Shown piece after piece: positions 13,191 to 52,300 of a stretch of DNA of 64,000 bases. The position numbers and the translations under genes are program-made. Below the pieces are notes generated by a model. That model did not search any database. It was given only the letters and a program-made list of their open reading frames with translations, and had not been told where the DNA came from. The stretch is from Torpedo marmorata (Eukaryota): the NCBI GenBank assembly GCA_977017645.1, contig OZ360230.1, positions 65,782,001 to 65,846,000 of the forward strand. The letters are read 5' to 3'. The first letter of the stretch is position 1. Each line of letters begins with the position of its first letter.

Positions 13191-13275
13191 GTATTTCCAA
13201 GTCAGGCTGATGTGCCTTTTGAAAACCTGGGTTACAAGGAGCAAGATTACTGAATTGCTCTTTTTAGTGGAAGAG

Positions 13276-20940: not shown

Positions 20941-23900
20941 ATACGATGCAATCGTGGTTTCTGATCATGCACCTTTAAAGCTTTCTGTTGAAATCTCCAG
21001 TGTCACTTCCGGAGTTCAACAATGGCGGTTCAATTCTACTCTGCTTCAGGGTGAGAAATTTATTAAAGATCAGATTTCTTTCTTTTTTCAGACAAATTCC
21101 TCGGAAGGAATGTCCAATCTAGTAATTTGGGATGCACTTAAAGCATTTTTACGAGGACAAATAATTTCTTATTCTGTTGGACTTAGAAAATGTACCAAAA
21201 GTGAACTGACATTACTTGCTAATAGAATTAAAGAGATTGACAGATTATATTCTATGACACCTAGTATGGACCTTTATAAGAAAAGAGTAGAATTTCAAAC
21301 TCAGAATGACTTATTATTAACTTACCCCATCGAGAATCAACTACTTAAACTTAAATCTCAATTTTATGTTCATGGAGAGAAATCAGGTAAGCTGTTGGCT
21401 GGTCAGCTGAAGGCAGCTGCAGCTAAAAGACAAATTATAAGAAGGATGGAAATTTAACTTTTGATCATGCTGAAATTAATAAAGTGTTTCAGGAATTTTA
21501 TTCAGATCTAAACAAATCTGAATTTCCTGATAATTCTATTTTAATGGATAAATTTTTACAATGGTTGAATACTCCTAAAATATCATCAGAAGATCAAAAC
21601 CTGTTGGAAGCTCCAATTTCAGAGTCGGAAGTTTCCCAAGCTATATCTTCTCTTCAATCTGGCAAGGCCCCAGGTAAAGGAAAAGGTTCCATTATAGTCA
21701 TGTAATGCTACATTTAGAATGTAACGTACATGAAATTACTTAATTTTTGTCTACCGTAAGGGCAGACAGAGGGTCGCTACTTTGTCCAGCGCCCCTCACA
21801 GAAACCTACAGTACCTGGTGTTCCTTGGCGGTCTCCCCTCCAAGTACTGACCAGTCCTGTGCCTGCTTAGCTTCCGAGATCAGACAATCCTAGTCGTATT
21901 CAGGTTATTTCTGGATGGCTTTACGGTGGAATTTTTAATATCATTTACTAACTTACTTACTCCTCAACTATGTAAAGTATTTTAAAATTCAGTTTTCTCT
22001 GGGACCCTACCGGCAACTTTTTATGAAGCATCAATTTCACTGATTCCTAAAAAAGATAAAGATCTGACTGAATGTACTTCCTATAGGCCAATTTCTTTGT
22101 TGAATGTAGATTTTAAGGTTGTTTCTAAGATTCTAGCTGGCAGGTTGGAAAATATTTTTCCTTCTGTTATATCTAAAGATCAGACTGGATTTATTAAAAA
22201 TCGATATTCACATTTCAACATCCGTAGATTAATGAACATTAGTTATTCCCCTTCGGACACAATTCCAGAATGTGTAGTTTCTCTAGATGCAGAAAAGGCT
22301 TTTGACAGAGTGGAGTGTAACTATTTATTTGAAACATTAAGAAGATTTAATTTTGGTATGGGTTTTATATCATGGATTAAATTGATCTATAGTACCCCCT
22401 TAGCTATGGTAGTTACTAATAATAACAAATCCTCCTCATTTAGGTTGTTTAGGGGAACTAGACAGGGATGTCCCTTAGCCCCTTGCTATTTGATCTAGCT
22501 TTAGAACCTCTGGCAATAGCCTTTAGAGACTCTCTTGACGTTCAAGGGATTGTCAGAGACGGAGTAACTCATAAGGTTTCTTTGTATGCAGATGACTTAT
22601 TAGTTTATATTTCAGATCCTGAAAGATCTATCCCAGTTATGTTATCTGTGTTTTCTCAATTCAGCTCTTTCTCTGGATATAAATTAAACCTTCATAAAAG
22701 TGAACTTTTTCCGATTAATATGCAGGTCCCTATCTATACTCAAGTTCCATTTAAGATTGCTAGAGATAATTTCACATACTTGGGGGTTAAAATTACTAAA
22801 AGATTTAAAGATTTATATAAACTCAATTTTTCTCCTCTATTTGAGTATGTGAGATTGTCTTTTTCTAGATGGTCTCCTTTATCGTTATCTTTAATAGGTC
22901 GTATTAATGCAGTTAAAATGATAATATTACCTAAGTTTTTATATTTATTTCAAGCAATTCCAGTTTTCATTCCGAAATCGTTTTTTAATAATATTGACTA
23001 AAAAGTTTCTTCCTTCATTTGGAAGAACAAAAACCCTAGAATTAGTTAATTTCATCTACAAAAATTGAAAAAAGATGGAGGTATGGCCTTACAAAATTTT
23101 AGATTTTATTATTGGGCTGCTAATATTCGCTATCTAACTTTTTGGATTTTTTATTCTGATAAATTGGCAGATTTAGAATTGAAATCTATACAGCAGTATT
23201 CAGTGGCCTCTTTATTAGGTGCCTCTCTTCCATTTAGCTTTTCCAAGGTCAATAGGAATATATCTAATCCAATACTCAAACATACATTATGAATCTGGTT
23301 CCAATTTAGGAAATTTTTTAATTTAAAAAACTGTCTTATCTCGTGCTATCTCTCATAACTATTTTTTTTGACCATCAATAATTGATCAATTTTTCTCTAT
23401 ATGGAAAATCAAAGGTATTGTTTCTTTTGCAAATTTATTTAAGGAAGGTTGTTTAATGTCTTTTGAACAGCTTGCAAGTAAATATGACTTACCAAATACT
23501 CATTTTTTTAGATATTTACAGATTAGAAATTTCTTAAATATCATATTACGGGATTTTCCATTTATATATCCACCAGATTTAGTTGATAATATTTTTCAAT
23601 TGAATCCTTCTCAGAAAGGATTAATTGGAATTATATATGATAGATTATTAAAATTGCATCCAGTACTTCATGATAAGATTAAAAAGGCTTTGGAACTGGA
23701 ACTTGCAAGACCCTTATCTGAGGATCTATGGGACAAGATTTTTAAATTGGTAAATACATCTTCTAAATGTGCCTGACATTCATTAATCCAATTCAAAGTG
23801 GTGCATCGTGTTCACATGTCCAAAGGTAAATTGGCTAGTATTTTTTCTAATATTAACCCTATTTGTGACAGATGCAAATCTGAAATTGCTACATTGACAC

Positions 23901-24593
23901 ATATGTTTTGGTCTTGTTCACTCTTAGAAAACTATTGGAAAGAAATTTTTAATATCTTTTCAACTATACTCCAGGCGGAGCTACGACCCAATCCAATAAC
24001 TGCTCTTTCGGGGTTATTGACCCAGACATAGGGAGTTTTTCTGTACTTGTTCAATGCGTTGTGGCCTAGAAGAGCCATCTTTTTCAAATGGAAAGACTCT
24101 CGACCTCCAACAGTGTTTCAATGGTTTTCTCTTATTATGTCTTGTTTAAGCTTAGAAAAAATTAGATATCATGTATTTGATTCATCGGTGAAATTTGAAG
24201 ATACATGGCGACCTTTTACGTCTTATTTTCATAGGATGTAAGTGTTTCTAATGTGATTAGATGTATTTAATCTTCCTTTGTTTTTTTGATTTACGGCAGG
24301 AACCAAAAATTACAAAATATATATAACCTTCAGGAGAAGCTGCTCAGCTGTGTTTTGTTAGTTTTTTTTTATTAGAGTAGGTTAGGTGGTTTTTTAAAAT
24401 ATATATAATACTTTTGATGGTTTTTTTTTTCATTGTCACCTATTGCAGTGGAGGAGGGATCGAGTTTATACTGTTTGAAGTTTTATTTTAATATATATAT
24501 ACATATGTGATATTGTATTTTCAATTTCGTTCCCTTTTCTTCATTGTATTGTGTTTCTTATAAAAATAAATAAAAAGATTGAAAAAGAAAAGA
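20941..24593 (+). mobile_element. 5'-truncated L1/Tx1-like LINE (end of APE, RT, Cys/His domain, 3' UTR)
   Basis: SDHAPL, WRFNSTLL, WDALKAFLRG, DAEKAFDRVE, GTRQGCPL, LYADD, CDRC..HMFWSC; AATAAA + A-rich tail; 108-bp flanking duplication. Confidence 0.95.
21676..21910 (-). mobile_element. 5S rRNA-derived SINE (SINE3-type), copy 1, inside L1
   Basis: Reverse strand GTCTGATCTCGGAAGCTAAGCAGG...TGGTCAGTACTTGGAGGGGAGACCGCC..GGAACACCAGGTACTGTAGG aligns to vertebrate 5S; splits the L1 KAPG/DGF motif. Confidence 0.92.
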
Positions 24594-24679
24594 TGAAGAG
24601 GGCAAGGCTGCAGACATTTTCTACGTTGACTTTAGCAAGGCCTTTGACAATGGCTCGCATTGTAGGATGGTCCAGAACA

Positions 24680-26110
24680 AAGAACATAATACAACATGAG
24701 ATCAGGCCCTTTGGCCCACATTCTCTGTGCCAAGTATGATGCCTTAATTAAGTCTCTGCTGCATCCACATCACTCTACTCCCTGGATATTGTGTCTATCC
24801 AGAACTCTCTTAAACACTAGTTTTGTATCTGCTACCACCACTACTCCTGGCAGCCCGATCCAGGCATCCATTGTGCAAAAAAAAATCTTGCCCCACACTT
24901 CTTTAAACTCCACTCCAACCCTCCCCCAATTTAACACTGCCTCGAGCACTTCAGATTTTTACCCTGGGAAGAATATTCTGAATTTCTGCTGTTATGGACC
25001 ATGACTGACAATTTGGACTGCGGACGGTCAGCAGGAAGGATGAATGAAGTCTTTTGGAGTACACACTGGGACCTGGTATTGAAAGAGTTAACTTGCCCAG
25101 GACTTCTTGTACTTACCGAGAGAGAGGCACCAGGGGGAGACAAACTGAGAAAAGAGATACTTGGTTGGACTTTTGAAAAAAGGCAGGTGAAGACCTCTGC
25201 AGGAAGGCCTTAAAGTTCAGTCGTGGAAAACTGAATCAGTGGCAGTTTTGGAGTTGCAAAGGTGGGAGAACCCAGCAAAATCCAGGCTTGTGCATCCCAG
25301 AGGAAAATGCTGGAAGAAGAGTACAGAGTCTCATGAATCAGCAAAATCCAGGCTTGTGCATCTCAGGGGAAAAGGTTGGGAGAAAAACAAGGCCTTGGTG
25401 ATTCAGCAAAATCCTGAGTTGAAGGCAACTTTTGTGAAGAACTGGCGTGTGATCAGCGAGACAGGCTGTGAGATCCAAGTACACGCCTCAATCCAAAACG
25501 GATTTGGAGTCGCAATCCTTGTGAAACTACCAGAAGGGAATGTCATCAGAGAAGAAAAGCAAGCCAAGCATTCGTAAGCATAAACAGTCATTGTCTCTCT
25601 CTCCATCGTTCATTAAGAAGTCCTTCTTGCCAGTGCACAGAGCTGAATTTGGACCCTGAACATAGAGAGTGAATTTTTGTGGACTGTATTTTTGGGACTG
25701 ACTTGTTTTTATGACTGACCTGGGGTTTTTGGGGAAGGTTTTCTATTTTTACATGAGGTTGGACACAGACTGTAATGGTCTGGGCTTTACACACACACAC
25801 ACTTTTTAGATAAGAATAGTGTTTATAGACGTTTATAGTGGGGTTCATTGTTGTGAAATTATATGTTTAATTGTCTTTAATAAATATAAATTTCAATTTT
25901 ACCCCTTTTGCATTGCGTCTTCTGTCGTTGCTGGTTTGAATTTGTAACACTGCCCTCTCAGGGCTTCGCATAATTTTATAAGCTTCTCTCAGCTTCCAGA
26001 GAAAACAAGCCAAGTGTGTCCAACCTCCCAACAGCTCCTACCCTCTAATCCAGGCAGCATCCTGGTAATCCTCTTCTGTATCCTTACCAAAGCCTCCACA
26101 ACCTTTCTGT
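24680..26110 (-). mobile_element. Decayed CR1 3' fragment hosting the solo LTR
   Basis: AGAACATA..CAGGCCCTTTGGCCCACA reverse tail; AATCCAGGCAGCATCCTGGTAA. Confidence 0.7.
24990..25949 (+). mobile_element. Solo LTR, Gypsy-like (960 bp)
   Basis: Termini TGTTA...TAACA; perfect 4-bp TSD CTGC (24986-24989 / 25950-25953); AATAAA at ~25879; interrupts a CR1. Confidence 0.85.
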
Positions 26111-26255
26111 GACACACATTACTTCAAAGAATAGGGCAGTGAATGTTTGGGATTCTCAGCATTTGATAGCTTTGGATGCTTAGTCTTTGTGTGATTGAAT
26201 ACATTCCTGAATATTCGGAGAATTGAGGGAAATGGGGAAGATGCAGGAAACTGGT

Positions 26256-29030
26256 CATAGAGTGCTATGGCACAGAAACAGGCCCTTGGGCTCTACCCGT
26301 TCATGCCGACTAAGCTGATCGCCTCCAAACCTTTCTTATCCAGGTATCTCTCTAAAGGGCTTTTAAATGTGATAATTTTCCACCCTTCTACCAATTCCTC
26401 TGGCAGCTCATTTCCATGCACTCCACCCTCGGCGTGAAGAAGGTGCCCCTTAGGTCCCTTTTAAATCTTTCTCCCCTAACCTTAAACTTACTCCTAGAAA
26501 AAAGGCCATGACTATTTACCTCATCTATGTCCCTCGTGATTTTATAAACCTCTATAAGATTCCCTCTCAGCCTCCTACGCTTCAGGGATAAAGGTTCCAA
26601 CTATCCAGCCTCTCATTACAATTCAAGCTCTCCAGTTCTGGTAACATTCTCATGAATCTTTTCTGCACTCTTTCCATCTTCATGATACCTTTTCTGAAGC
26701 TGAGTAACCAAAACTGCACACAATACTCCATGTGTGTTATTTGCAGATGATGTATTAATATATATGACGAAATCTGTTGCATCACTTCAACAATTGGCTA
26801 CTATATTGACAGAATATGGTGAGATATCAGGATATAAAATTAATTCAGTTAAAAGTGAGATTTTGGCTTTATCTCAAGGGGATTATACTAGATGTAAAGA
26901 AGTTACAGACTTTAAATGGACTACAGAGAGTATTAAATATTTGGGAGTTAAAGTTGATACAAAATTAGAAAATCTGTATAAATTAAATTATATACCTTTA
27001 CTTATGAAAATAAAAAAAGATTTAGAACTTTGGAAAGATTTACCTATAACTTTGATGGGAAGAGTAAATTGTATCAAAATGAATGTTTTTCCAAGAATTC
27101 AATATCTTTTTCAATCGATTCCTTATGGTATTCCAAATACATTTTTTAAAGATTTAAAATTTGTTGTTAGGAAATTTTTATGGAAAGGAAAGCTGGCAAG
27201 AGTAAGTATAGATAAATTAACATGGAATTATGAGATGGGAGGGTTACAACTTCCCAATTTTCAGTATTATTATAAAGTAGCTCAATTAAAGTTTATTAAT
27301 GAATTTTTTGATTTAAATAAATCTTCTGCTTGGATTAATATAGAATTGAATAATATAGGAGAAATATATAAAGAAGATATTATTTATAAATGGAATTCTA
27401 AATTACTATTACTTAAAAAGAAAAATACACCAATTATTAAACATCTGTTGGAAGTTTGGTCACAAGTAGATAAAGAGATAGGTCAAAAGGGATCAATTTC
27501 TTTAAATACACCAATATATCAAAATCCGCTTTTACCATTTTCTATTGATAATCAGTTACTTAAGTTATGGTTTCTAAAGGGAATTAAGACTTTAAAAGAT
27601 TGTTTTGAAGCTGGTAGATTTATTACTTTTCAGAGGTTAAAAGAAAAATTTAATATATTAGATAATACAATGTTAGTCTATTTTCAAGTTAAAGCTTTTT
27701 TGACCGAGAGATTAGGGAATGAATTAATAGCACCAAGACAAAATGAATTGGAATTGTTAATTACTAAAGTTAATGTTAATAAGTTTATATCACAAATGTA
27801 TAAATTGTTTCAAAGAAAGATGTCTAAAGTAGGAGCGCATAAGTCTAGATTAAAATGGGAATTAGATTTAAATGTTAATATAGATGAAAATCATTGGAGA
27901 GATTTATGTAAATTAAGTATGACTAAAGTTATTAATGTGAGATATAGATTAGTACAATATAATTTTTTTCATCAACTATATTTAACACCTAAAAAACTGA
28001 AGAAATTCAATCCAGCGTTATCAGATATGTGTTTTAGATGTAAACTGAAATAGGCTCTTTTGTACACTGTACTTGGTCATGTCCAAAAATTCAAGATTTT
28101 TGGTTGAAAGTTAAGAATTTTTTAGAAAGAATTTTTAATGTTGAAGTTATAATGGATCCTATGTTATTTTTATTTGGAGATATTAAAAAATTTAGTATCA
28201 GAAATAGATTAAATATGCATCAAGTAGAATTTTTACGTATAGTATTAGCAGTTTCGAAAAAGTGTATAGCTATTACTTGGAAATCAGATGTTGATTTAAA
28301 TCTAGAGAGATGGCATGCAGAGTTACGGTCATGTATACCATTAGAAAAAATTACTTATAATTTACGAAATAAATATCATTCTTTTTTGAAAATTTGGGGC
28401 CCATATATGAGGATTATGGGTTTAACATTGTAAATTCTCTGGATATCAGATCCGCTGGCGAAATAACCTCTAAGGTATATTAGTTTTTAAGTTTATTGAC
28501 TCCTCACTCTATTTTTCTATCTTTTCTTTTTTTTATTATTTTACTTTAAAATTTAGAATAGGGGGATATAGGGGCTAGGGAGGGGAGGGTGGGAAGGGGG
28601 GGAGAAAATGTAATCACATGTATTTTTTAAGAATTATATGCAAAATTATTTTATGTAATCTGTGATTTAAAAATTTAAATAAAATATTAAAAAAAAAAAA
28701 AACAATACTCCATGTGTGGCCTCACCAACGACTTGTACAGGTTTAACATGACATTCCTGCTCCTCTACTCAACATTCTGATCATTGAAGGTAAGTATGCC
28801 AAATGCATTCTTCACCACCTTCACTACCTCTATCTCCACTTTCATGGAATTATGCAAATCCCTTTGTTCTACAACACTTACCAGGCCTCCAGCATTCACC
28901 ATACAACACCTGCGTGATTTAACCTACCAAAGTGAAACACCTCACAATTGTCCTTATCAAGTTCCATCTGCCATTCCTTAGCCCAAGTCCAAGTTGTTAA
29001 TATGGATGACAAACAACAGTGGACCCAGCA
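26256..29030 (-). mobile_element. CR1 3' region split by an L1 insertion
   Basis: RRRLRGNLIEVYK and HMEYCVQFW; the sequence resumes after 28702. Confidence 0.8.
26737..28701 (+). mobile_element. 5'-truncated AT-rich L1-like LINE
   Basis: 439-aa ORF LFADD..IKYLG..GGLQLPN..CFRC; poly(A); 17-bp TSD ACAATACTCCATGTGTG (26720-26736 / 28702-28718). Confidence 0.95.
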
Positions 29031-29129
29031 CTGATTCCAGCAGCTTTCTTGATATTGAGAAAAAAGATCAGACATGATCTTGATGAGGGAAAGTGCAGCC
29101 TCGAAGGGCCAAATAGCTTATTCCTGGTA

Positions 29130-31160: not shown

Positions 31161-31174
31161 TCTGCTGCTGTTAG

Positions 31175-31803: not shown

Positions 31804-31804
31804 G

Positions 31805-33150
31805 ATCTTCGTTAAGACCCCAGAAATTTCCTCTCCTGCCTCTTTCAATAATCTGGGATAATCCCATCATATCCTGGCGGCTCATTTACTTTAATGTTCT
31901 TTATATTAAAAAAAATAGAACCATATCTTTGTTGATCTCAAAAGGCCCAACACATTAGCACTCTCCACACTGCCCTCTCTATCCTCCATGTTTTTCTACT
32001 TGGTGAATACCGATGCAAGGTACTCATTTAGTGCCTCACTCACTCCTTCTTGACTCCAAGCACAGATTTTTCTCCTTCATCCTTGAGTGCTCCTGTTTTC
32101 TCCCTGGTCATCTTCTTGTTTTAAATGCAAGAATAAAATGATTTGGGATTCTCTTTAATCCTGCTTGCCAAGGACACTTCATGGCCCCTTTTGGCCTTCC
32201 CAATATCCTGCTTCAGCTCTTTCCTGCCATCCTTGTATTCCCCAAAGACCCGGTCTGATTTTTGTTTCCTCAACCTTACATATGTTTCTTTTTCCTTTTT
32301 GACTAATTCATGATTTCTCATCATCCAAGGTTCTCTTACCTTGCCATCCCTGTCCTTCCTCCTCACTGCAACCTGCGGTCCTGGACTCTGATCAGCTGGT
32401 TCTTAAACAACTCCCACATTTGAGTTGTAAAGGTAAAGGTTCCATTATTGTCGTGTAATACTACATTTAGAATGTGACATACATGAATTTTTTGTCTACC
32501 GTAAGGCAGACGGATAGTCGCTACTTTGTCCAGCGCCCCTCACAGAAACCTACAGCACCAGGTGTCCCTTGGCAGTCTCCCCTCCAAGTACTGACCAGTC
32601 CTGTGCCTGCTTAGCTTCTGAGATCAGACAATCCCAGTCATATTCAGGCTTGCCTTATAACAACTGCTCCCAATTGACTCATGCCTTATAATGTCAGAAT
32701 TTGTCCTCGCCTAATTTAGTATTTTTCCACAAGGTCCAGGCTTATCCTTACTGATAACTATCTTGTAACTTAAGAAATTGTGATTACTATTCCCCATTGC
32801 TTCGTTATAGAATCTCAGATCACCTGGCCAAGCTCATTTTTCAGTGCAAGGTCTAGTATGACCCCATTCCCTGGTTGGACTGTCCACATGCTATTTCAAG
32901 AATCCCTCCTGGATGCATCCAACAAATTCTGTCCCATCTAAGCCTCCAGCACCAAGGTCACCCTGATCAATATTGGGGAGATTAAAGTCTCCCACTATGA
33001 CAACCCTATTGCTTTTACATATTTCTATAATATTGTCCCCATATTCGTCCCTATATCTCTCAGTGTTTATTGAGAGTCCTATGATATAACCCCATCAGAG
33101 TGAGTATACCTTTCTTAGTTTTGATCTCCACTACTGTCTCAGTTGGTGAG
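31805..33150 (-). mobile_element. Decayed CR1 (APE to pre-RT)
   Basis: LASRIKENPKSFY; VGDFNLPNID on the reverse strand. Confidence 0.8.
32427..32650 (-). mobile_element. 5S rRNA-derived SINE, copy 2
   Basis: Near-identical to 21676-21910; (ACCTTT)n tail. Confidence 0.92.
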
Positions 33151-33227
33151 CCCCAAAAGTAGGCATACATCAGGATGCTCTTTATTGAAATCTGGGACAC
33201 TGCATGCCTGTTCCCCTTAAAAACACG

Positions 33228-35275: not shown

Positions 35276-36055
35276 CATGTCAGTACAGAGGAACTTCACA
35301 AAGGATGATTCACAAAGGAAGAACAAGGAAGAAAATGGAAGTCATCCACAAAAGTATCCATCACTAAAACCTGAGAGAGTATGGCTGATTGAAACACTGA
35401 ATATCCACAAGAGGGCGAGAGGGTTGGAGCCTGAGAAAGTCAAATTACATTCAGCAGATATACATTTCAAATTAATGCAAGTCAAAATATTCTATTCCCA
35501 CACAAATTGCCGTCACGAAAATCTTTATTGTAACAATTAAAATTATTACAACATTAATTGAACAAGGGCTCAATGCATGGCCATTCCCAAATATGAGGAT
35601 GAGATTGGCAAATTAACCCTTTTATATATGCAGCCAAATCTTTTTCTAACCCCAGGGCAACTTAAAAACTTTATTAGAAATCTACAGTCCAGACATGCAA
35701 GTTTATCACTTAACAGTCCACAATCTAACTCAAAACGCTTGAATCTATTCAAGAGGAGCTGCTGCCAAATTAATTATCTGGATAGGCAGCCATCACATTA
35801 AGCAGAAATCATGTCAGATTTCAAGTGATTGCTCATTAACCCATTCAATCTCTTGGTGCACAATACCAACTGCACCCTCTCCCTATTGTAATCCTTCACT
35901 GTTTCTTTAATCAGCCATGTAATTGGCTTCAATCACTTCCTGGAGGTCTGTTACAGCTGTTGACCACACCACGTGTAGAAATAGTTTACTGCGGCTAACT
36001 AAAGCATGCCCTTCACACCCTGAATCTGTAACCTCTGCTCCAATCCAATACTAAA

Positions 36056-36407
36056 AGCTGCCATCAGGAAAGAGGTATAGGTGCCACAAGACTCGCACCG
36101 CCAGGTTCAGGAACAGCTGCTACCCCTCCACCATCAGACCCCTCAACGAAAAACTCAATCAGAGACTCATTTAAGGACTCTTACTTATGCACTTTATTGA
36201 TTTTCTTTTTTATTCTCTCTGTATTGCACAGTAAGTTTGTTTACATTCGTTCTGTTTACATTTCTTTATTTGTTTGCATGTATACGCTGTGTACAGTTTT
36301 TTTGCACTACCAATAAGTGGTAATTCTGCCGCACCCGCAGGAAAAAGAATCTCAGGGTTGTATGTGATGTCGTATATGTACTCTGACAATAAATCTGAAA
36401 TCTGAAA
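36056..36407 (+). mobile_element. Rex1/Babar 3' end
   Basis: LPSGKRYR motif; TGACAATAAATCTGAAATCTGAA tail. Confidence 0.88.
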
Positions 36408-36589
36408 AAAAAATCTTTCGGTTTCCTACACTCTCAGCACCTGCCCTGGTACCAAATCTAATTTTCTATCTATTTTATATTAAAATTCTCACATCTGTCT
36501 GTCCTTTCTATGAACTAACCTTGCATATTTCTGCCCACATTTCAGACAACAGATGACAATTCCAGCATGTCACCCTGTAATTACACCAT

Positions 36590-39500
36590 AGTAAAAACAC
36601 AAAGTTGGAGAAACTCAGCAGGTCAAACAGTGTCCTTTATTACTTTTTTAAATGCAATAATTACAGTTATACCAAAGAAAGATAGAGATGTATTGAAAAC
36701 TGAATCTTATAGACCTATTTCATTATTAAATGTAGATTATAAGATAATGGCAAAAATTTTAGCAAATAGAATGGCTAATTATTTACCAGATTTAATCCAT
36801 GTAGATCAAGCTGGTTTTATTAAAAAGAGATATTCAAAAGATAATATAGCTAGATTGATTAGCTTAATTAATTTACATAAAAAGAAGGAAGATTTACCAT
36901 TAGTTTTAACTTTAGACGCTGAAAAGGCTTTTGATAGATTAGAGTGGAATTTTTTATTTAAGGTATTGGAGAAATTTGGTTTTGGAAATACATTTATTAA
37001 TTGGATTAAAACTATATATAAAGAACCATCTGCTAAAGTAGTTACAAATGGACAAATTTCTTCAAAATTTCCTTTGACTCGATCTACTAGACAAGGATGT
37101 CCTTTGTCACCAGCATTATTTATTTTGGCGATAGAACCTTTGGCAGAATTAGTTAGAAAAGATCCTAAAATAGTTGGTATTAAAGTTGGAATGGAAGAAC
37201 ATAAAATTAGTTTGTTTGCAGATGATGTATTGATATATATGACAAAATCTATTACATCCTTAGTACAATTGTCTGTGTTATTGAGAGAATATGGGGAAAT
37301 ATCTGGATATAAAATTAATTCTAATAAAAGTGAAATTATGGCATTATCACAAGGGGATTATAGTAGATGTAAAGAAATTACACAATTTAAATGGGCAAAG
37401 GAAGGAATTAAATATTTGGGAATAAGGGTTGATACAAAATTGGCTAATTTATACAAATTAAATTATCTACCATTATTTGTGAAAATAAAGAAAGATTTAG
37501 AAAATTGGAAAGATTTACCAATAACTTTAATGGGAAGAGTAAATTGTATTAAAATGAATGTTTTTCCAAGAATTCAATATCTTTTTCAATCAATTCCTTA
37601 TGGAATTCCTCAAAATTGTTTTAAAGATTTAAATTCAATTATTAGAAAATTTTTATGGAGAGGAAAGTTAGCAAGAGTAGGTATGGAAAAATTAACTTGG
37701 AATTATGAAATGGGTGGTTTACAACTTCCTAATTTCAAAAATTATTATAAAGCAGCTCAACTAAAATGTGTTAATGAATTTTTTGATTCAACTAAATCTT
37801 CTGCTTGGATTAAAATAGAATTAAATAATATAGGAGAAGATTCCAAAGAAGAAATTATTTATAAATGGGATTCTAAATTAATATCAACAAGAAAGAAAAA
37901 TTCGCCTATTTTAAAACATTTGTTAGAAATATGGAATAAGACGGATAAGGAAATAAGAGGAAAAGAATTGATTTCTTCAAGGATGCCTTTATATCAAAAT
38001 TGACTTATTCCATTTACTATTAATAATCAATTATTTAAAATTTGGTTTCAAAAATGAATTAAGAAGATTAATGATTGTTTTGAAGCTGGGAAATTTATTA
38101 CTTTTCAAAGAATGAAAGATAAATTTAATATATTAGATAATACACTTTTTGCTTATTATCAAATTGGAGCTTTTCTGATTGAGAAATTAGGTTATGCTTT
38201 GATTTTATCAAGACAAAATGAATTAGAATTATTAGTTACTAATGGAGATGTTAATAAATTTATTTCTCAAATGTATAAATTGTTTCAGAGGAAAATGCCT
38301 AAAGTAGGATTGCATAAATCAAGATTAAAATGGGAATTAGATTTGAATGTAAGAATAGATGAAAATCATTGGAAAGAATTATGTAAATTAAGTATGACGA
38401 AGATTATTAATGTTAGATATAGATTAGTACAATACAATTTTTTTCATCAATTATATTTAACACCTAAAAAATTAAAGAAATTTAATCCGACACTATCAGG
38501 TTTATGTTTTAGATGTAATAAAGAGGAAGGGTCTTTTTTACATTCTACATGGATTTGTCCAAAAGTTTATGATTTTTGGTTGAAAGTTAAAATTTTCTTA
38601 GATAAAGTATTTAAGATTACATTTCCAATGGATCCTATGATATTTTTGTTTGGAGATATTAGAAAATTTAGTATTAAGATGAAATTAAATATGTATCAAA
38701 TAGAATTTTTACGAATTGCTTTAGCTGTTTCAAAGAAATGCATTGCTATTACTTGGAAATCTGATTTAGATTTAGGATTAGAAAAATGGCATGCAGAATT
38801 TCGTTCGTGTATACCACTTGTAAAAATTACTTATAATTTACGTAATAAATATCATTTCTTCTTAAAAATTTTGAGCCCATATATGAAAGCTGTTGGTTTA
38901 AGGATTTGAAGATCTCTGGATATCGGATCTACTGGCATACTTGACCTCCATAATAGAATTAGTTTATAGATTGGCATTCCCCTTACTCTATCTTTTTCTT
39001 TCTTTTTCTTCTTCTTTTTCTATTTTTATTTTATATTTTTATTTTTTATTAGATTAGTGGGGTTGGGAGGGTTGGGGAGGGGAGGGAGGGAGAGGGGTGT
39101 GAATATGTATCACAAATAATTTGATAATTTTATATTCTATTTTATGTATTTTGTGATTTAAAAATTTTAAATAAAATATTTTTTTTTAAAAACAAAAAAA
39201 ACAGTGTCCTTTATATAACAAAGGTAAAAATACATAACCGACGTTTCAGGCTTGAGCCCTTCATCAAAGTATGGAAAAATGTCGGCAGGCGTCCGAACAA
39301 AAGAGTAGGGGGAGGGGGAGGAGGAAGAGGAGAGCAGGTTAGCAGAAACCGGAAAAGTTGATGTTAATGCCATCTGGCTGGAGAGTGCCCAGACGGAAAA
39401 TCAGGTGTTGTTCCTCCAATTTGCAAGTGGTCTTGGTGGGACAGTACATAAGGCCATGGACAGACATGTGATTATGGGAGTGTGACACAGAACTGAAATG

Positions 39501-39920
39501 GTTGGCTACTGGGAGGTATCTGTTACTGGTGCGGACGGAGCGAATGTGCTCAGCGAAGCGATCTCCCAATTTGCGCCCAGTCCTGCTCTCCTCTTCCCCC
39601 TCCCCTTCCCAGTTCTCCTCCCTCCCTTCCCCCTCCCTTCCCCCTCCCTTCACCTAGCCATCCCTCCTCCCCTTGATCTCTGCTGTCCCCTCCCTCCTCC
39701 ACCTATCACCTCCTGCCTTTGCGACCCACCCTCCCCCCCCCTACTCTTTTGTCCGGACGCCTGCCGACATTTTCCCATACCTTGATGAAGGGCTCAAGCC
39801 CAAAACGTCGGTTATGAATCTTTACCTTTGCTATATAAAGGACACTGCTTGACCTGCTGAGTTTCTCCAGCTTTGTGTGTTTACTTCAACCATGGTGTCT
39901 GCAGACTTTCGTGTTTTACT
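36590..39920 (-). mobile_element. 5'-truncated Penelope-like element (GIY-YIG C-terminus + pLTR + inverted pLTR), split by a nested L1
   Basis: ORF 39339-39653 TGRKLGDRFAEH..PVANHF..EQHLIFRLGTLQPDGIN; inverted pLTRs 39199-39310 (continuing at 36590-36640) and 39740-39920; 16-bp flanks CCTGTA(A/T)TTACACCAT (36574-36589 / 39921-39936). Confidence 0.9.
36641..39198 (+). mobile_element. 5'-truncated AT-rich L1-like LINE (RT to 3' UTR)
   Basis: YRPISLLN, DAEKAFD, RQGCPLSP, FADD, CFRC..H..W.C; 16-bp TSD AAACAGTGTCCTTTAT (36625-36640 / 39199-39214). Confidence 0.95.
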
Positions 39921-41728
39921 CCTGTATTTACACCATGTTGTGTGTGGAGGCAGTGCTGGGTCACCACTGGCAGGAGTGCAACTGCATTACAAGATTATTT
40001 GTTTGACAGATTCCATTAGTAACACAAACAGGCACTTAAAATACAAATATACGAACATAGGCTCAATGCAAGACAGTTAAGCAGAGATTACGTCTAGGCA
40101 ATGTTATCTATTCTCCAAATCCACCACATAAAAACCACAAAGTACAGGATCATGGGAGTCAAGAGTTATAAAACCATAAGAGAAAGGAGCAGAAATAGGC
40201 TATTCAGCCCATCGAGTCTGCCCTGCCATTTAATCTTAAGATGATCCATTTTCACACTCAGCCTGACTACCAGACTTCTCCCCATAACCTTTGATGCCCT
40301 GGCTAATCAAGAACCTATCAATCTCTGCCTTAAATACACCCAATGTCCTGGCCTCCACAACTGGCTGTGGCAACAAATTCCACAGATTTACCACCCTCTG
40401 GCTAAAGAAATTCCTTCACATTTCTGTTCTAAGCAGGCGTCTTTCAATACTGAAGTTGTGCTCTCTTGTCCTAGACTCTCCCACCATGGGAAACAATCTT
40501 TCTACATCTACTCTGTCCACACCTTTCAACATTCAAAATGTTTCATGAGATCCCTCCTCATTCTCCTAAATTCCAATGAGTACAGGCTAGGAGCTGTCAA
40601 AAGCTCCTCAGATAATAACCCTTTCATTCCCAGAATCATCCTTGTGAACTTCCTCTGAACCCTCTCCAACGTCAGCACATCCTTTCTTAAATGAGGAGCC
40701 CAAAACTGCTCACAATACTCCAAGTGAGGTCTCACCAGTGCCTTATAAAGGCTCAACATCACATCCCTGCTCTTATATTCTATTCCTCTTGAAATGAATG
40801 CCAGCATTGCATTTGTCTTCTTCACCACTGACTCAACATGCAAGTTTACGTTCAGGCTGTCCTGCACGAGGACTCCTAGGTCCCTTTGCATCTGGGTATT
40901 TTCAATTATCTCCCCATTTAAAAAATAGTCTGCCCGTTTATTTTTTCTACCAAAGTGAATGACCGTACACTTTCTGATATTGTATTTTATTTGCCACTTT
41001 TCTGCCCATTATCCTAATCTAAGTCCTTCCACAGCCTCCGTGTTTCCTCGACACTACCTGCTCCTCCATCTACCTTCGTATCAACCACAAAGCTATTCAT
41101 TCCATAATCCAAATCATTAATATACAACATACAACTAGCAACTGGCAGCTAACCAGAATATGATCCCTGTATTCCAACACTCTGGCTTCCTGCCAATCAG
41201 CCAATGCTCTACCCACACGAGTATGTTTCCTGTTATACCACAGGCTCTTATCTTGTTAAGTAGCCTCACGTGTGGCACCTTGTCAAAGGCCTTCTGAAAA
41301 TCCAAATACACATCATTCACTGCATCTCCTTTATCTAGCCTGCTTATAACTTTTTCGAAGATTTCCAATAGATTTGTCGACCGAGATTTTCCCTCAAGGA
41401 AACCACGCTGGCTTTGGCCTATCTTGTCATGTGCCTCCAAGTTCTCCGTAACCTCATCCTTGACAAACGACTCCCACAGCTTTCCAATCACTGATGTCAG
41501 GCTAACCATTTTATAATTTCCTCCCTCCCTTCTTGAAATGTGGTGTGACTTTTGTGATTTTCCAATCCTCCGGGACCATAGCAGAATCTATTGATTCCTG
41601 AAAGATCATTACATGGTTAAATCTATATTTTGGTCGGGTGCAAGCAGCGTTAGAAATGCAAATGTTCCGTACGCACCAACCTAATTTACATTTCGAAAAT
41701 AGAAAGGAAAATTGGATGTAATGGACCC

Positions 41729-42521
41729 ACGGGGAGCGGAGATACAGCGCTCCCGTGGGGTCCAGCCGCCCAGTCGACTGCCGTCGGTTCCGCGCGGGCT
41801 TTGAATGGCCCGTTAAAGGAGCCGACGGTGGTTTTATTTAAGATCCCGCGGCCACGGGGTCTGCGCCCAAGATGGCAGAGCCTTTAAACCAGCAGCAGCC
41901 ACGAGGGGCTGCAGACTCCGGGGGAAGCGGAGGACTGGAGCAGGGCACCAGAGGACGGGAAGATCACCCCCCGTCTGAGAAGGAGAAGCGGAGGAGACTA
42001 CCCACGGGACGGTGACCACGGCGGCGGACCAGTGAGGGGCTCTGAGGCTGAAGGACCAGAGCATGCGGTGAGCTGCTGGCGACTCGAGGCGAGAAACCCG
42101 CAGAGGCTGTGGGCTGCTGGAGACTGCTGTCGGGGGACTCACGCCGGGCTGCGGACTGCTGGAGGCTGGCTCGAACTGGCTGGAGGAGTACCAGGTATCG
42201 GAACCGGGATGCGAGGGGGTGCCGAGGGCGCCCTGACCGTGTCGGAGGTTTGGATCTGGAGCTCGGGATGCCGATGGTTTGGACTGGACTCTGTCTGGCT
42301 GCGGAGGCTGCGGAAGCGCTGGAGGCGAATCTATGGACACTCGGTGACTCTGGGGGGATTCTCTTTTGCTTCTCTTTCTCTGACTGTAAGGAATGTTAGA
42401 GGCGCTTAGGCAATTTCTGCCGGTGGCGAATCTGTCTGCCTTGCAGCAGGCAAAAAGAAATTTCATGGAATATGACACTGTCTTATTACTAACACAATAA
42501 ATTGAATCTTGAATCTTGAAT
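41729..42521 (+). mobile_element. CpG-rich non-autonomous retroelement, copy 2
   Basis: Colinear with the reverse complement of 3418-4210; tail AATAAATTGAATCTTGAATCTTGAATC; interrupts CR1. Confidence 0.88.
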
Positions 42522-45038: not shown

Positions 45039-46818
45039 AAATTACACGATTTAAATGGTCAAATAATGGAATTAAATATTTGGGAATAAAAATAGATACA
45101 AAATTAGGTAATTTATATAAATTAAATTATTTACCATTATTTACTAATATTAAAAATGATTTAGAGAGTTGGAAAGATTTACCTATAACTTTAATAGGAA
45201 GGGTAAATTGTATCAAAATGAATGTTTTTCCAAGAATTCAATATCTTTTTCAATCAATTCCTTATGAAATTCCTCAAAAATTCTTTAAGGATTTAAATTT
45301 AATTATTAGGAAATTTTTGTGGAAGGGAATGTTGGCTAGAGTAGGTATGGAGAAATTAACTTGGAATTATGAATTAGGAGGTTTACAACTTCCCGATTTT
45401 CAAAATTACTATAAGGCAGCTCAATTAAAATTTATTAATGAAATGTTTGATTTAGAAAAATCTTCTGCTTGGATTAGAATAGAATTAAATAATATAGGAG
45501 AGGATTCGAAAGAGAAGTTATTTATAAATGGAATTCTAAATTATTATTAAGGGGAGGTAAAAATTCTCCTATTTTAAAACATTTGTTAGAAATATGGAAT
45601 AAAGTGGATAGGGAGATAGGAAGGAAAGGGTTAATTTCTCGTAAAATGCCTTTATATCAAAATAAACTTATCCCATTTACTATTGATAATAAATTGTTTA
45701 AAATTTGGTTTCAAAAAGGAATTAAAAATGTGAATGATTGTTTTGAAGCTAGTAAATGTATTACTTTTCAAAGAATGAAAGAGAAGTTTAATGTATTAAA
45801 TAATACACTTTTTTCTTATTATCAAATAAGAACATTTTTAGTTGAAAAGTTAGGTCATAGTTTAATTTTACCAAGACAAAGTGAATTGGAACTATTAGTT
45901 ACTAATGGGGGTATAAATAAATTTATTTCTCAAATGTATAGATTGTTACAGAAAAAAATGCCTAAACCAGGCATTCATAAATCAAGATTAAAATGGGAAT
46001 CAGATTTGAATGTAACAATAGATGAAGAACATTGGAAAGAAATATGTAAACAAAGTATGACGAAAATTATTAATGTTAGATATAAGTTAGTGCAATATAA
46101 TGTTTTGCATCAATTATATTTAACACCTAAGAAATTAAAGAAATTTAATTCGAGACTATCAGATTTATGTTTTAGATGTAATAGAGAGGAAGGCTCTTTT
46201 GTACATTCTACGTGGCTTTGTCCAAGGATACATGCTTTTTGGCTGAAAGTTAAAAAGTTTTTAGACAAAGTATTAAGAATTACACTCCCAATGAATCCTA
46301 TGATATTTTTGTTTGGAGATATTAAAAGAATTAGTATTAAAATGAGATTAAATATGTATCAAATAGAATTTTTGCAAATTGCTTTAGCTGTTTCAAAGAA
46401 ATGCATTGCTATTACATGGAAGTCTGATGTAGATTTAGGGTTAGAAAGATGGCATGCAGAACTTCGTTCATGTATACCACTTGAAAAAACTACTTAGAAT
46501 TCACGTAACAAATATCATTTCTTTTTGAAAATATGGAGCCCATATATAAAAACTGTGGGCTTAAGGATTTGAGGATCTCTCGATATCAGGTCTGACTGGT
46601 GAACCTGTGTTCCACAATTAAATTAATGTATAGTTGTTCTTTTTTAGATTGACATTCTCCAAATTCTATCCTTTTTTTTCTTTCTTTCTATATTATTAGA
46701 ATAGTAGGGGTTGGTGGGTAGGGTGAAAATATATCACATGTATTCTGATAATTTTGTATTTTATAAACATGTATTATCGTGTGATTTAAAATTTTAAATA
46801 ACATATTTTTTTTTAAAA
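45039..46818 (+). mobile_element. 5'-truncated AT-rich L1-like LINE
   Basis: Same family as 36641-39198; TSD AGAAACAAG (45030-45038 / 46819-46827). Confidence 0.93.
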
Positions 46819-47058
46819 AGAAACAAGCCCTTCAGCCCAACTCATCCATTCTGACCAAGGTGCCTTCCTGAGCTTGTTTCATTTGCTTGTGTTCAAACCA
46901 TATCTTGCTGTACCTTTCCTATCCCTGCAGCTGCACAAATGTATTTTATATGATGCAGTTGTATCCTGCTCCACATACTCACATTAATACAAAATCATTG
47001 TCTAAAAAAGGCGAGCATTTGAGCTGACACAAATACCCCACATCTCCAAGATACAGGG

Positions 47059-47207
47059 GCAACCTGTCCCACTTGTACAGGTCACCCCTTCCCCAGAAAA
47101 GGTTCCAATGATCCAAGAATTTGAACCCTGCCCCATCTCCTCCACCACACGTTTGTCTGCACTATCTTCTTGTTTTGACCTTCCCTAGCTCGCCGCACCA
47201 GGAGATA
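47059..47207 (-). mobile_element. CR1 ORF1 (esterase) fragment
   Basis: Similar to 44710-44875. Confidence 0.75.
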
Positions 47208-47523
47208 TTGCAGTAAGCAATTTGAAGGCTTTGTTATGAGGCACTTCTTCTCAAATAAATCAGACAAGTGCAGCTCAAGTAAAACTGTGCACTATATGGA
47301 AGATGTCAAAATATAAATTAAAAAAACAAGAAAGGCTATAAATCCTGAGATGAGCAAGCTTCTGTGCAGAACGAAACATATGTTTCAATCTCTGACCCTG
47401 AACCAGTCAATGAAAATGAACAAACAGCAGGCGCAGGAAATCTGCATGAAAAACAGGAAATAGTCAGTCAGCCGGCCAGCCAGCCGCTGAAAGGGAAACA
47501 GTTCATGCTTCAGTTCAATTTCT

Positions 47524-48109
47524 TTTTTTAAAATATTTTATTTGTATTTTTTAAAGCCAAACATATTTATCAATAACAAAAATAATACATCATCAAATAT
47601 AATATTCGTCTGTTGACTATTATACTAAAAAACAACAACAAAATTACAAACAAAGGAAAACCCACCCACCCAATTCCCCCCTAAAAGAAAAAAAAGAGAG
47701 GAATAGAATAAGAAAAGGTTGAAATAGAAAAGGAAAGAAGACGTTGGAGACTCGTCGTCCACCCCGCAGGCTTAAATTACTTGGCATACTCGGATTTCTG
47801 AAGAGGAAATGGACATAGGTCCTGGAGGCGAGGGGGGGCCTGGTTATAGATTTACAGCCATGTGTTGTAAATATGGAGTCCAAATCTTTAAAAATATATC
47901 ATATCTATTTCTAAGATTATAGGTAATCTTCTCAAGGGGAACACAGCTGTACATTTCCTCATTCCATCTTGTCATACCGAGATGGGAATCAGACTTCCAT
48001 GTGACCGCTATACATTTCCTGGCCACCGCCAATGCGATCTCCACAAATTTTATTTGAAATTTTGACAGCCTCATCTTAGGTCTTACGCCGGAGATATTGC
48101 CCAATAGCA
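47524..48109 (-). mobile_element. Short L1-like 3' end, related subfamily
   Basis: IALAVARKCIAVTWKSD...PLEKITYNLR; 15-bp TSD TTCAGTTCAATTTCT (47509-47523 / 48110-48124). Confidence 0.9.
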
Positions 48110-48787
48110 TTCAGTTCAATTTCTGAATCATTTTCCTTCATCTCTGATCCTTCTATAAATTACGGTAAATCTCTGGTTTCTGCCACCTGACCAGATATCC
48201 TGATGGTTTGGCATCTAGCCCTTGGGTGATGTTTCACACCCTCCATGAAACTCATTGGGAGCCAGAGTGCCCATGCTCCCCACAAAGGTATCAAGTTCAC
48301 TGGACCATTTATAATAATACTAAACATCTAAAAAAAGGTGAATAAAAAGTGTAGCTGGGATCATCGAAATAACACCCAATAGTCTAGAAAATCTGACTCA
48401 AATCCTGAGCATGCCAGATGTCAGAGTGTGCTCCTTGGTGTTCGACTCCTCTGTTAAGAGAAATAGATCCTTCCTACTTCATCCAGCCCCTCAGAATTTC
48501 ACAAAGCCTAATTATAGTCTACTCTGTTCCAAATAAAATAACCACAGTCTTCTCAATTCTTCCTCAAAGCTACAATTTTGTAGTTCTGTCAACATTCTCA
48601 AAAATATCCCATACACCTCACAACTTAGAACACAAGAACATAAGAAATATGAGAATGAGTAGGCCTTTGAGCCATTAATAAGATCATGACTGATCTGGCT
48701 GTGGACTCAGCTCCACCTACCTGCTTTTTCCCCATAACCCTTAATTCCCCAAGTTTTCAAAAATCTATCTGCAGTTTAAATACATTT

Positions 48788-49311
48788 CAGAATCAGAATT
48801 TATTGTCATGAACATGTGTCATGAAATTCGTTGTTTTGCGACAGCATTACAGATGCAAAAATTGGTGTAGATTTCATTTTAAAAATAAATAAATAAATTA
48901 GTGCAAAAGAAGAGAAAAAGTGAGGTAGTGTCTGTGGTTCATTGTCCATTCAGGAATCTGATGGCAGAGGGGAAGAAGCTGTTTATGTAACATTGGGTGT
49001 TCGTCTTCAGGCTCCTGTACCTCCTTCCTGATGGTAGCAGTGAGAAGACGGCATGGCCTGGGTGGTGGTGCTCCTTGAGCATAGAAGCTGCTTTCTTGAG
49101 ACACCGCCTCTTGTAGATGTCCTTAATGGAGTGAAGGCTGATGCCCATGATGGCGCTGGCCGAGTTCACAACTCTCTGTAGTCTTTTCCTATCCTGTGCA
49201 TTGGTACCTCCATACCAGAGAGTGATGCAACCAGTCAGAATTATCTCCACAGTATACCTCTAGAAATTTGCAACAGCCTTTGGTGACATACCAAATTTCC
49301 TCAAACTCCTG
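48788..49311 (-). mobile_element. Rex1/Babar 3' fragment
   Basis: ILTGCITLWYG..RLQRVV..LLPSGRRYRS; TGACAATAAATTCTGATTCTG tail. Confidence 0.9.
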
Positions 49312-52300
49312 AATAACAAGTACCTGTATACCATTTTGGATACTGTTGAGGGGGATGACCTACCAGGCACAAGCCATGGCAATCAGGTCTCTGGCATGGA
49401 GTCTGGTCCTGTGGCTAAGAAGGGAAGGGAGGAGAAGAGGCAAGCTGCAGTGATAGGGGATTCCAGAGTTAGGGGGACAGATAAGAGTTTCTGTGGAGGA
49501 GATCGAGTATCCCGGATGGTATATTGCCTCCCAGGTGCCAGGGTCCGAGATATCTCAGATCGAGTTCATGGCATTCTCAGGAGGGAGGGTGAGCAGCCAG
49601 ATGTCGTGGTCCATGTAGGGACCAATGATGTGGGTAGGAAGAGTGAGGAGGTCCTGCAAGGAGAGTTCAGGAAGTTAGGTGCTAGGTTGAAGGAAAGAAC
49701 CTCCAGGGTAGTGATCTCAGGATTGCTACCCGTGCCATGTGCTAGAGAGGTTAGAAATAGGAGGATAATGCAGCTTAACACGTGGCTGAAGACGTGGAGG
49801 GAGGGCTTCAGGTTTCTGGATCATTGGGCTATCTTCCAGGGAAGGTGGGACATGTTCCGACAGGACGGTTTGCATCTGAACTGGAAGGGGACTAATATCC
49901 TTGCAGGCAGGTTTGCTAGTGCTGCTCCGGTGGGTTTAAACTAGATTTGCAGGGGGAGGGGAACCAGAGTGCCAGAGCAGATAGAGGAGTGGAGAAGGGA
50001 AAAGATTATGTTAAAATTGCATGCACCATTAGAAGTCAATGGGTTGAACGTGGTGGAAATTTTCTCAGGTGCATCTATTTCAATGCAAGGAGTATTGTAG
50101 GAAAGGCAGACGAGCTTAGGGCGTGGATTGGCACGTGGAATTACGACATTGTGGCCATTAAGGAATCTGGGTTGCAGGAGGGGAAGGACTGGCAGCTCAA
50201 CGTTCCAGGCTTCCGTTGCTTTACACGCGATAGAATGGGGGGATGAAAGCATTGCTCGTCAGGGAAAATATCACAGCTTGTGCTCAGGCAGGTCAGACAA
50301 GAGAGCTCGTCCACTGAGGCTATATGGGTGGAGCTGAGGAACGCAAGTGGTATGACCACACTCATGGAGTTGTATTATAGACCACCCAATAGTCAGCGAG
50401 AATTGGAGGAGCAAATCTGTAGAGAGTTAGCAGACAGTTGCAGGAAACATAAAGTTGTGATAGTAGGAGATTTTAACTTTGCACATATTGACTGGGACTC
50501 CCATACTGCAAAAGGGCTGGATGGCTTGGAGTTTGTCAAATGTGTTCAGGAAAGTTTTCTAAATCAATATATAGAGGTACCAACTAGAGAGAATGCAATA
50601 CTGGATCTCCTATTAGGGAACAAGACAGGACAGGTGACAGAAATATGTGTAGGGGAACATTTTGGGTCCAGTGATCATAATGCCATTAGTTTCAAGTTAA
50701 TTATGGACAAGGATAGGTCTGGGCCTCGGGTTGAGATTCTAAATTAGAGAAAGGCCAATTTTGAGGAAATGAGAAAGGATCTAGAATGCGTGGATTGGGA
50801 TAGGTTGTTTTCCGGCAAGGATGTGCGAGGTAAGTGGAGGACCTTCAAAGGAGAAATTTTGAGAGTACAGAGTTTGTATGTTCCTGTCAGGATCAAAGGC
50901 CAGGTTAGAAGGTATAGGGAATCTTGGTTTTCGAGGGATCTGGTTCGGAAGAAGAGAGAGGTGTATAACAGGTATAGGCAACATGGAGCAAATGAGGTAC
51001 TTGAGGAGTATATAAAATGCAAGAAAAACTTCAAGAAAGAAACCAGGAAGGCTAAAAAAAAGACATGAGGTTGTTTTGGCAGACAATGTGAAGGAAAATC
51101 CTAAGGGTTTCTACAAGTATATTAAGAGCAAAAGGATAGTAAGGGACAAAATTGGCCTCATTGAAAATCAGCGTGGTCGGCTTGTTATGGAGCCAAAAGA
51201 GATGGGGGAGATCTTACATTTTTTTTTTCATCAATATTCACTCAGGAAACGGGCACAGAGTCGTGGGAAGTAAGGAAAACAAGCAGTGAGGTCATGGAAC
51301 CTATACAGATTAAAGAGGAGGAAGTGCTTGCTGTCTTAAAGCAAATAAGGGTGGATAAATCCCCAGGGCCTGACAAGATATTCCCTCTGACCTTGAGGGA
51401 GGCTAGTGCAGAAATTGCAGGGGCTCTGGCAGAAATATTTAAAATGTCCTTAGCCACGGGTGTGGTGCCAGAGGATTGGAGGGTAGCTCACGTTGTTCCA
51501 TTGTTTAAAAAAGGCTCCAAAAGTAACCCTGGAAATTATAGGCCGGTGAGCCTGACGTCAGTGGTAGGTAAATTATTGGAAGGTGTTCTAAGAGATCAGA
51601 TATACAATTATTTGGATAGCCAGGGACTGATTAGGGATAATCAACATGATTTTGTGTGGTAGGTCGTGTTTAACCAATCTTAGAGTTTTTCGAGGAGGTT
51701 AACAGGAAAGTTGATGAAGGAAAGGCTGTGGATGTTGTCTTCTTGGACATTAGTAAGGCTTTTGACAAGGTTCCGCATGGGAGGTTAGTCAGGAAGGTTC
51801 AGACGCTGGGTATTCATGGTGAAGTAGTAAACTGGATTCGACGATGGTTGGACGGGAGAAGCCAGAGAGTAAAGGTTAAAGATTCCATTATTGTCACGTA
51901 ATACTACATTTAGAATGTAACATACATGAAATTCTTTAATTTTTGTCTACTGTAAGACAGGCAGAGAGTCGCTACTTTGTCCAGCGCCCCTCACAGAAAC
52001 CTACAGCACCTGGTGTTCCTAGGCGGTCTCCCCTCCAAGTACTGACCAGTCCTGTGCCTGCTTAGCTTACGAGATCAGACAATCCCAGTCATATTCAGGC
52101 TATTGGTGCTGTGATTGCTTCTCAGATTGGAGGCCTGTGGCTAGTGGTGTGCCTCAGGGATTGGTACTGGGATCATTGTTGTTTGTCATCTATATCAATG
52201 ATCTGGATGATAATGTGGTAAATTGGATCAGCAAGTTTGCAGATGACACTAAGATTGGAGGTGTTGTGGACAGCGAAGAAGGTTTTCAAAGCTTGCAGAG

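Follow-up and report, generated by a model that had tools for sequence, protein, structure and literature searches.

Short interspersed elements (SINEs) that carry different heads on one and the same tail of a long interspersed element (LINE) are known from several groups of animals. Heads added to bipartite LINEs, in which a 5' and a 3' remnant are joined, are found in CoeSINE4/CoeSINE5, HaSE1/HaSE3, Ped-1/Ped-2, Bov-tA and WALLSI; in the same account the 5' parts in the middle of SINEs come only from RTE and Vingi, and bipartite elements devoid of an open reading frame (ORF) only from RTE, Ingi, Vingi and R2 (Kojima 2018, PMC5786205). On the salmonid LINE RSg-1, 5S and tRNA heads share one LINE tail in OS-SINE1, SlmI and HpaI (PMC3747384). 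Here we analyse a 64-kb stretch of the Torpedo marmorata genome (contig OZ360230.1, positions 65,782,001 to 65,846,000; hereafter the window), in which a 5S-headed element, S, and a CpG-rich-headed element, C, share a tail that is probably assembled from both ends of a Rex1 LINE.

The SINEs of PMC5786205 would resemble S and C in having a LINE remnant of 5' plus 3' parts behind differing heads, among them 5S and tRNA heads and some of unknown origin; S and C would differ from them in that the donor is Rex1 and the 5' piece is the very terminus, only ~30 nt long. OS-SINE1 is listed as a DeuSINE, whereas S has no room for a body because its tail starts right after the 5S part. Zebrafish SINE3-1 has, like S, a 5S head and a CR1-group tail, but its partner is listed as CR1-4_DR and it contains a Deu body, neither of which is found in S (both listings in PMC3747384). 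The elephant shark pair CmiSINE/SacSINE1-CM offers a precedent for a tail reported to derive from another non-autonomous element, since the stretch common to the two exceeds the LINE match; unlike S and C, it has tRNA heads, CORE or Deu bodies and an L2 tail (PMC5499810). High-copy, non-autonomous elements without a small-RNA head, as C is, include the SIDEs Persaeus and Zenon (PMC6740152) and the GC-rich-headed bird SINEs (PMC7245038). C differs from these in that its head is unmatched to any LINE 5' region tested (those of the Rex1 families A, B and R1) and in its Rex1 tail. The primate SVA is likewise a high-copy non-autonomous element without a small-RNA head, and C, like it, can contain a tandem array, here of 43-nt units. 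The salmonid LINE RSg-1 is probably of Rex1 type. The exchange of heads on one LINE tail is a well documented principle, and the modular system that an earlier note on this window proposed was to that extent overstated, as published cases exist (PMC3747384; PMC5786205). Neither family, nor a bipartite Rex1, was described in the literature searched, with Repbase, Dfam, SINEBase and paper supplements outside its scope, and S and C may already be catalogued in one of these databases.

A tail common to S and C

The assembly measures 6.2 Gb, with a repeat content suggestive of a cartilaginous fish, and the sequence analysed totalled 1.88 Mb, made up of the window, 400 kb adjoining it, 400 kb of evenly picked stretches and loci from genome-wide searches; unselected DNA amounted to 864 kb including the window and 800 kb without it. 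C1 denotes the young C subfamily, present in the window, and C3 an older one; R1, Rex1-A (A) and Rex1-B (B) are Rex1 LINE families of this genome.

The earlier note had described the S and C tails as colinear, and all strings it quoted were located at the positions it gave. Within the window the tails aligned colinearly at 66-67% over 91-97 nt (blastn, E 3e-4 to 8e-3), and the local score across genomic copies, 63.5, lay far above that of dinucleotide shuffles, 18.8 +/- 3.2 (z 13.9). The common part was as claimed, but the length of ~110 nt fell short: the tail measures ~125 nt from the first base past the 5S end, position 51996 in the S copy at 51869-52112. That the likeness is chance between AT-rich ends could be argued only from the modest single-pair E values in the window; z of 14-33 over many copies, 79% identity between S and C3 and a single supported branch refute it, and we give it practically no credence. 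The ends of S, C1, C3 and R1 have a common predicted layout, in which a hairpin and an A-run precede a terminal hairpin that closes on TGA, with CAATAA and short repeats coming last; the folding z-scores were -2.5 for S and -0.6 to -1.2 for C1, C3 and R1.

Rex1 as the nearest LINE

Searches for Rex1-type ORF ends gave 253, from 165 of which a tail was obtained, falling into five main families and many singletons. R1 alone of the five matched both elements (z 8.8 for C1, 3.8 for C3 and 3.3 for S), and the other four reached at most z 3.8 for C1 and no more than 1.1 for S and C3. The nearest LINE tail belongs to a 5'-truncated R1 copy at 36035..36410 on the plus strand, consisting of the ORF end and 3' untranslated region (UTR), and a second R1 3' end lies at 17444..17782 on the minus strand. 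The likeness that the earlier note saw to the Rex1 end at 36318-36405 is clear for young C (z 8.8), but in S it is modest (z 3.3). When the 3' parts of S and C were combined in one profile and run over the 1.88 Mb, it ranked R1 tails directly behind sequences of S/C type, and z of 3.0-10.0 was obtained for this part against the R1 3' end. The best LINE match was thus Rex1 and not CR1, as predicted: 60 CR1 3' ends scored at shuffle level (z 0.0), and L2 was covered by the scan of the 1.88 Mb, in which R1 ranked first. The tail scores and the scan together bear out the claim that S and C, whose heads are unrelated, share a single 3' module of Rex1 type. Identity of R1 to the S and C tails was only 59-65%, which makes R1 too distant to be the direct parent.

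The probable assignment of A, B and R1 to Rex1 is based on a single ORF with RVT_1 and PF09004 and on a primer motif. Rex1-A has one frame from a 5'-terminal ATG, with RVT_1 and PF09004 above the cut-off and an endonuclease match just below it; two copies of this young family (L132 and L155) have open frames of more than 1000 codons whose ATG lies no more than ten bases from the start of the element. The (F/Y)SSAFNT motif, which a published Rex1 primer encodes, is present in R1 and B and absent from CR1; the primers themselves match the DNA poorly (6-8 of 21 positions mismatched). Reverse transcriptase identity was 67% for A-R1, 62% for A-B and 30% for A-CR1. The Rex1 3' UTRs found here end in 5-7-nt tandem repeats, a feature of Rex1/Babar (PMC4635592), and Rex1 is described as lacking ORF1 (PMC13343379). 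High Rex1 content in rays and a CR1-group SIDE are reported among the papers PMC3747384, PMC5499810, PMC7245038, PMC6740152, PMC13343379, PMC6274825, PMC4635592 and PMC9004415.

The lead of the tail and the Rex1 5' terminus

The first 30-35 nt of the tail common to S and C are here called the lead. Full-length Rex1-A begins AAGATGGCGCC...GGCGACTCTTTG and R1 begins AAAATGGCGCC...GGCGACTTTCTG; the S lead of the window reads GGCGCTGGACAAAGTAGCGACTCTCTG and agrees with an R1 5' end in 22 of 30 columns. Under plain scoring, the score of the S lead was reached by 8 of 2000 shuffles for R1 and 7 of 2000 for A, and by 16 of 6000 random genomic 60-mers; the Rex1-B 5' end did not match the lead. A transition-tolerant scoring was chosen afterwards so as to favour, as far as possible, the rival origin of the lead from a 3' hairpin. 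With this scoring the S lead gave z 5.3 against each of the R1 and Rex1-A 5' ends (0 of 1500 shuffles) and z 1.4 against the corresponding R1 3' hairpin, and the C3 lead gave z 3.3 and 3.8 against the R1 and A 5' ends. A profile of 21 Rex1 5' ends, run over the 864 kb, placed S and C leads at ranks 1, 2, 3, 4, 10 and 11 of 44 matches, while profiles of the R1 3' hairpin and of the UTR start found no S or C copy among 144 and 143 matches, respectively. When slid along whole LINE copies, the C3 lead scored best at the 5' terminus, in A as well as in R1; for the S lead the 5' terminus was joint first in A and third in R1 (21.8 vs 22.0), and for the C1 lead it came first in R1 only. The Rex1-A 5' terminus and the S lead have the same predicted stem with a 7-nt loop and a bulged A, and TTCTGC occurs in both ends of R1, at the point where the match switches from 5' to 3'. 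Because the first 30-35 nt match the Rex1 5' terminus and the remainder matches the Rex1 3' end, the tail is probably a bipartite mini-Rex1, judged from these alignments.

In the full-length S copy at 51869..52112 (minus strand) the lead occupies 51964..51996, with its predicted hairpin, 7-nt loop and bulged A resembling the Rex1 5' terminus. The 3' part follows at 51869..51963 (minus strand), with two predicted hairpins, CAATAA and 6-7-nt repeats, resembling the R1 3' end (z 4.9).

Alternative origins of the tail

Several results weigh against a bipartite origin. The lead match is short and was noticed post hoc; under plain scoring the C3 lead was equalled by 226 of 2000 shuffles for R1 and 91 of 2000 for A. 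The transition-tolerant scores of the C1 lead against the R1 and A 5' ends were z 2.1 and 0.8, C1 and C2 together being weak at 0.8-2.3, and single matches of the Rex1 5'-end profile had E of only 0.2-4. The 3' UTR of R1 itself has a predicted hairpin at the same place. Two-sided covariation was not above shuffles (4 pairs vs 4.3), in a cross-family alignment with misaligned R1 rows. A search with a single exact pattern for the R1 junction yielded no head-less bipartite copy; its only match was an ordinary R1 5' end. A LINE with an S/C tail was encountered at one locus (L105) among the 165 Rex1 ends, apparently a chimera or an insertion. Some of these points suit another account, in which a rare or extinct Rex1 family outside the sample has all 125 nt of the tail as its normal 3' end and S and C are plain tail-sharers; the lead would then be the first 3' UTR hairpin, and its likeness to the 5' end chance or an old repeat present at both LINE ends. 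The R1 3' UTR does have three predicted hairpins in the same order, the first of which can, on our reading, be seen as a CpG-decayed lead, and C upstream of the lead is weakly like the R1 UTR start (z 2.0). However, the lead scored only z 1.2-1.9 against the R1 3' hairpin, below the 5'-end scores of S and C3, and no such family appeared in 165 Rex1 ends, 88 tail-picked loci and two pattern searches. We therefore consider this account a serious but rather unlikely one.

It could also be envisaged that the whole of C arose by internal deletion from Rex1 or another LINE of the CR1 group, the C head being the 5' region of that LINE, and that S exchanged this head for 5S. The fixed ATGGCG start is common to C, Rex1-A and R1, and C carries tandem subunits, as some ORF1-less CR1-group LINEs are reported to do near the 5' UTR (PMC13343379). 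Yet the C model matched nothing in the 5' regions of Rex1-A, R1 and Rex1-B, and z of the C 5' end against these was -0.3, 0.1 and 1.5, a comparison that covers these three families only; this origin appears improbable to us. A bipartite tail remains our preferred reading.

The search for a closer partner LINE or for free head-less copies, sampled and non-exhaustive, found none. When LINEs that begin with the exact lead were sought by pattern, there were two matches against one in the control, both lying on our reading in L1-like DNA, and a pattern for a Rex1 ORF end followed by a C-type UTR gave three, the one inspected being a truncated C3. At the L105 locus (positions 300-1620) a Rex1-A-like ORF end directly abuts a C3 3' part, and the Rex1 UTR does not start again further downstream; the locus is either the product of a later deletion or a chimera formed by template switching, in which case Rex1-A would be indicated as a mobiliser.

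Descent of the tail and a proposed history

The earlier note had envisaged interchangeable heads on one module. Two heads on one module were indeed found, but they are not equals: S groups with older C and not with the C of the window. Tail identity was 79% for S-C3, 70% for S and the intermediate subfamily, 69% for S-C1 and 71% for C1-C3, with S-R1 at 59% and shuffled sequences at 52-54%. All S and C were separated from R1 in the tree (support 100/100), and a clade of S with C1 was rejected (p 0.0006). The S of two other organisms, D and F, shows C3-like letters in more than 90% of the depth at 51973 and 51940, where S of this genome differs. As S is closest to C3 and has C3 letters in D and F, its tail most likely came either from the C lineage, as a C3-like or ancestral tail, or from a common precursor. 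Three observations temper this descent: the placement of S beside C3 was weakly supported (80/58), a topology with all C together and S outside was not rejected (p 0.47), and the query used to choose the C3 copies had itself come from an S profile, so that the S-C3 likeness is somewhat inflated. S, C1, R1 and Rex1-A are similarly young, with 2-3% non-CpG divergence, although the LINE copies dated were top matches and hence biased young.

From the family structure, the tail homology and the nearest LINE as observed, we propose the following promoters, mobilisation and order of events. S and C likely move with a borrowed Rex1 enzyme, and their tail is probably an internally deleted mini-Rex1 in which the first 30-35 nt were joined to the last 90 nt. 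An R1-like Rex1 would first have been deleted internally, a short direct repeat being the possible site given that TTCTGC occurs in both R1 ends; the remnant would then have gained a 700-nt CpG-rich head to become C, which diverged into subfamilies, and a template switch would have placed 5S RNA before a C3-like tail, giving S. S would be read by RNA polymerase III (Pol III) from the internal 5S promoter and C by RNA polymerase II (Pol II) from its head, and the Rex1 protein would bind the 3' hairpins and prime reverse transcription at the terminal repeats; it seems to recognise the predicted hairpin layout more than the sequence.

The tail-sharing pair is thus real, well supported and of a known kind, with the bipartite Rex1 module as its probable new twist. 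We lean, if only slightly, towards the broader view that Rex1 also yields bipartite mini-elements, the 125-nt two-end fusion being a portable module at the origin of a Pol III 5S SINE as well as of an 850-nt, CpG-rich Pol II retroposon prone to variable numbers of tandem repeats and SVA-like, each in tens of thousands of copies and in several related species. If this is true, Rex1 would join the short list of LINE clades giving bipartite remnants and SINE middle parts. The LINE ends, the several C subfamilies and S offer a clean natural series for asking what the Rex1 protein recognises, and through C, at a density of roughly 15 copies per Mb, promoter-like DNA rich in CpG is spread.

The S family

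S and C are separate dispersed non-coding repeat families with related tails. The full-length S copy of the window (51869..52112, minus strand, ~245 nt) has ends identical to those of genomic copies L031-L060, and its 5S rRNA-derived head of ~115 nt lies at 51997..52112. Two further copies on the minus strand are short at the 5' end, one by a few bases (21676..21911) and the other, at 32427..32650, with a small deletion in the tail. All three heads had been called 5S-derived; with 41.7 bits for the full-length copy and 39.7 and 29.8 bits for the others against Rfam RF00001 (5S rRNA), two exceed the gathering score of 38 and the third does not. No run of four T was present inside the 5S head or the element in any of the three copies scanned. 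All 30 loci picked by S were S of ~245 nt, built of a 5S head beginning a few bases into the gene, the tail at once and then short CCTTTA-type repeats. S agrees with SINE3-type elements in being dispersed, uniform, short and non-coding and in having a LINE-like 3' end. Five 5S heads were found in the 800 kb outside the window, which by rough scaling corresponds to tens of thousands of copies; nine unselected copies differed by 2.9% from their commonest letters outside CpG. S also occurs in the three other organisms compared.

The C family

The window contains a C1 element at 41722..42521 (plus strand), which is without ~48 nt of its 5' end and has its CpG-rich head to ~42383 and its tail at ~42384-42521, and a second C1 copy, 94% identical to the first and without ~51 nt of the 5' end, at 3417..4215 (minus strand). 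Their 3' ends are as the earlier note quoted, but both are far longer than the 120 nt it gave. Whole C copies measure 825-857 nt and have the fixed start AATGGCGGCG. One young C head had 66% G+C and a CpG observed/expected ratio of 0.85; the random sample had 41% and 0.51. The 30 loci chosen with the C tail of the window were C without exception, several of them 5'-truncated, and C copies in general show a fixed 3' end, 5' truncations and terminal microsatellites. Fourteen C loci were counted in the 864 kb of unselected DNA. Older subfamilies are 70-90% identical to young C, and C3 copies differ by 7.3% from their own commonest letters. Part of the window C copy was present in 20 public runs from 10 studies, none of them listed as an RNA run, and C3 was covered over almost its full length in three of four runs; all the runs compared consisted of contigs. 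Target duplications of at least 7 nt were absent from all 22 S and all 33 C copies. Such absence of long duplications is the expectation for insertion by a CR1-group element, and not by L1 or RTE.

The C head starts with an ATGGCG motif, which we take to be of YY1 type. YY1 is reported to set the L1 start site (PMC11602158), and C may carry a putative internal Pol II promoter in its head. For the head, no tRNA was detected in the window and no Rfam family with a complete copy of old C; nor did it match a Pfam family or, with the C model, the 5' regions of Rex1-A, R1 and Rex1-B. On the minus strand of young C (window 41732-42520) an antisense frame of 220-284 codons is open in many copies, and in the commonest letters it reaches 284 codons (equalled by 4 of 1000 shuffles). 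This frame had no third-position bias between subfamilies (26/36/36), no Pfam family and no Atlas match, and measured 70-145 codons in the five most diverged full-length copies and 275 in one intermediate copy. A coding role was dropped and the frame treated as compositional, given the lack of codon bias and family and its shortness in diverged copies.

Intermediate C copies contain the 43-nt tandem array inside the head, of up to 16.5 units and variable length, an SVA-like build (L278, oriented positions 417-1126; also L267-L271, L280 and L281); many array-bearing copies lie within repeated blocks of contigs C81, C82 and C767. A C element at L311 (oriented 3050-4801) is interrupted at model position 201-203 by the insertion of a truncated Rex1-B copy. 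At L125:1477, 305 contigs of organism F (run X11) diverge from C3 just before the tail, with an agreement of only 0.46, possibly reflecting a C head with another tail. Another repeat, with promoter-like tandem AAGATGGCGGCGCCGGAAGTG units and distinct from C, was seen at L193, L218, L219, L228 and L229. The window also contains, at 12741-13199, 39199-39932 and 58937-59218, a family of short palindromic repeats, resembling miniature inverted-repeat transposable elements, that gives spurious microRNA matches.

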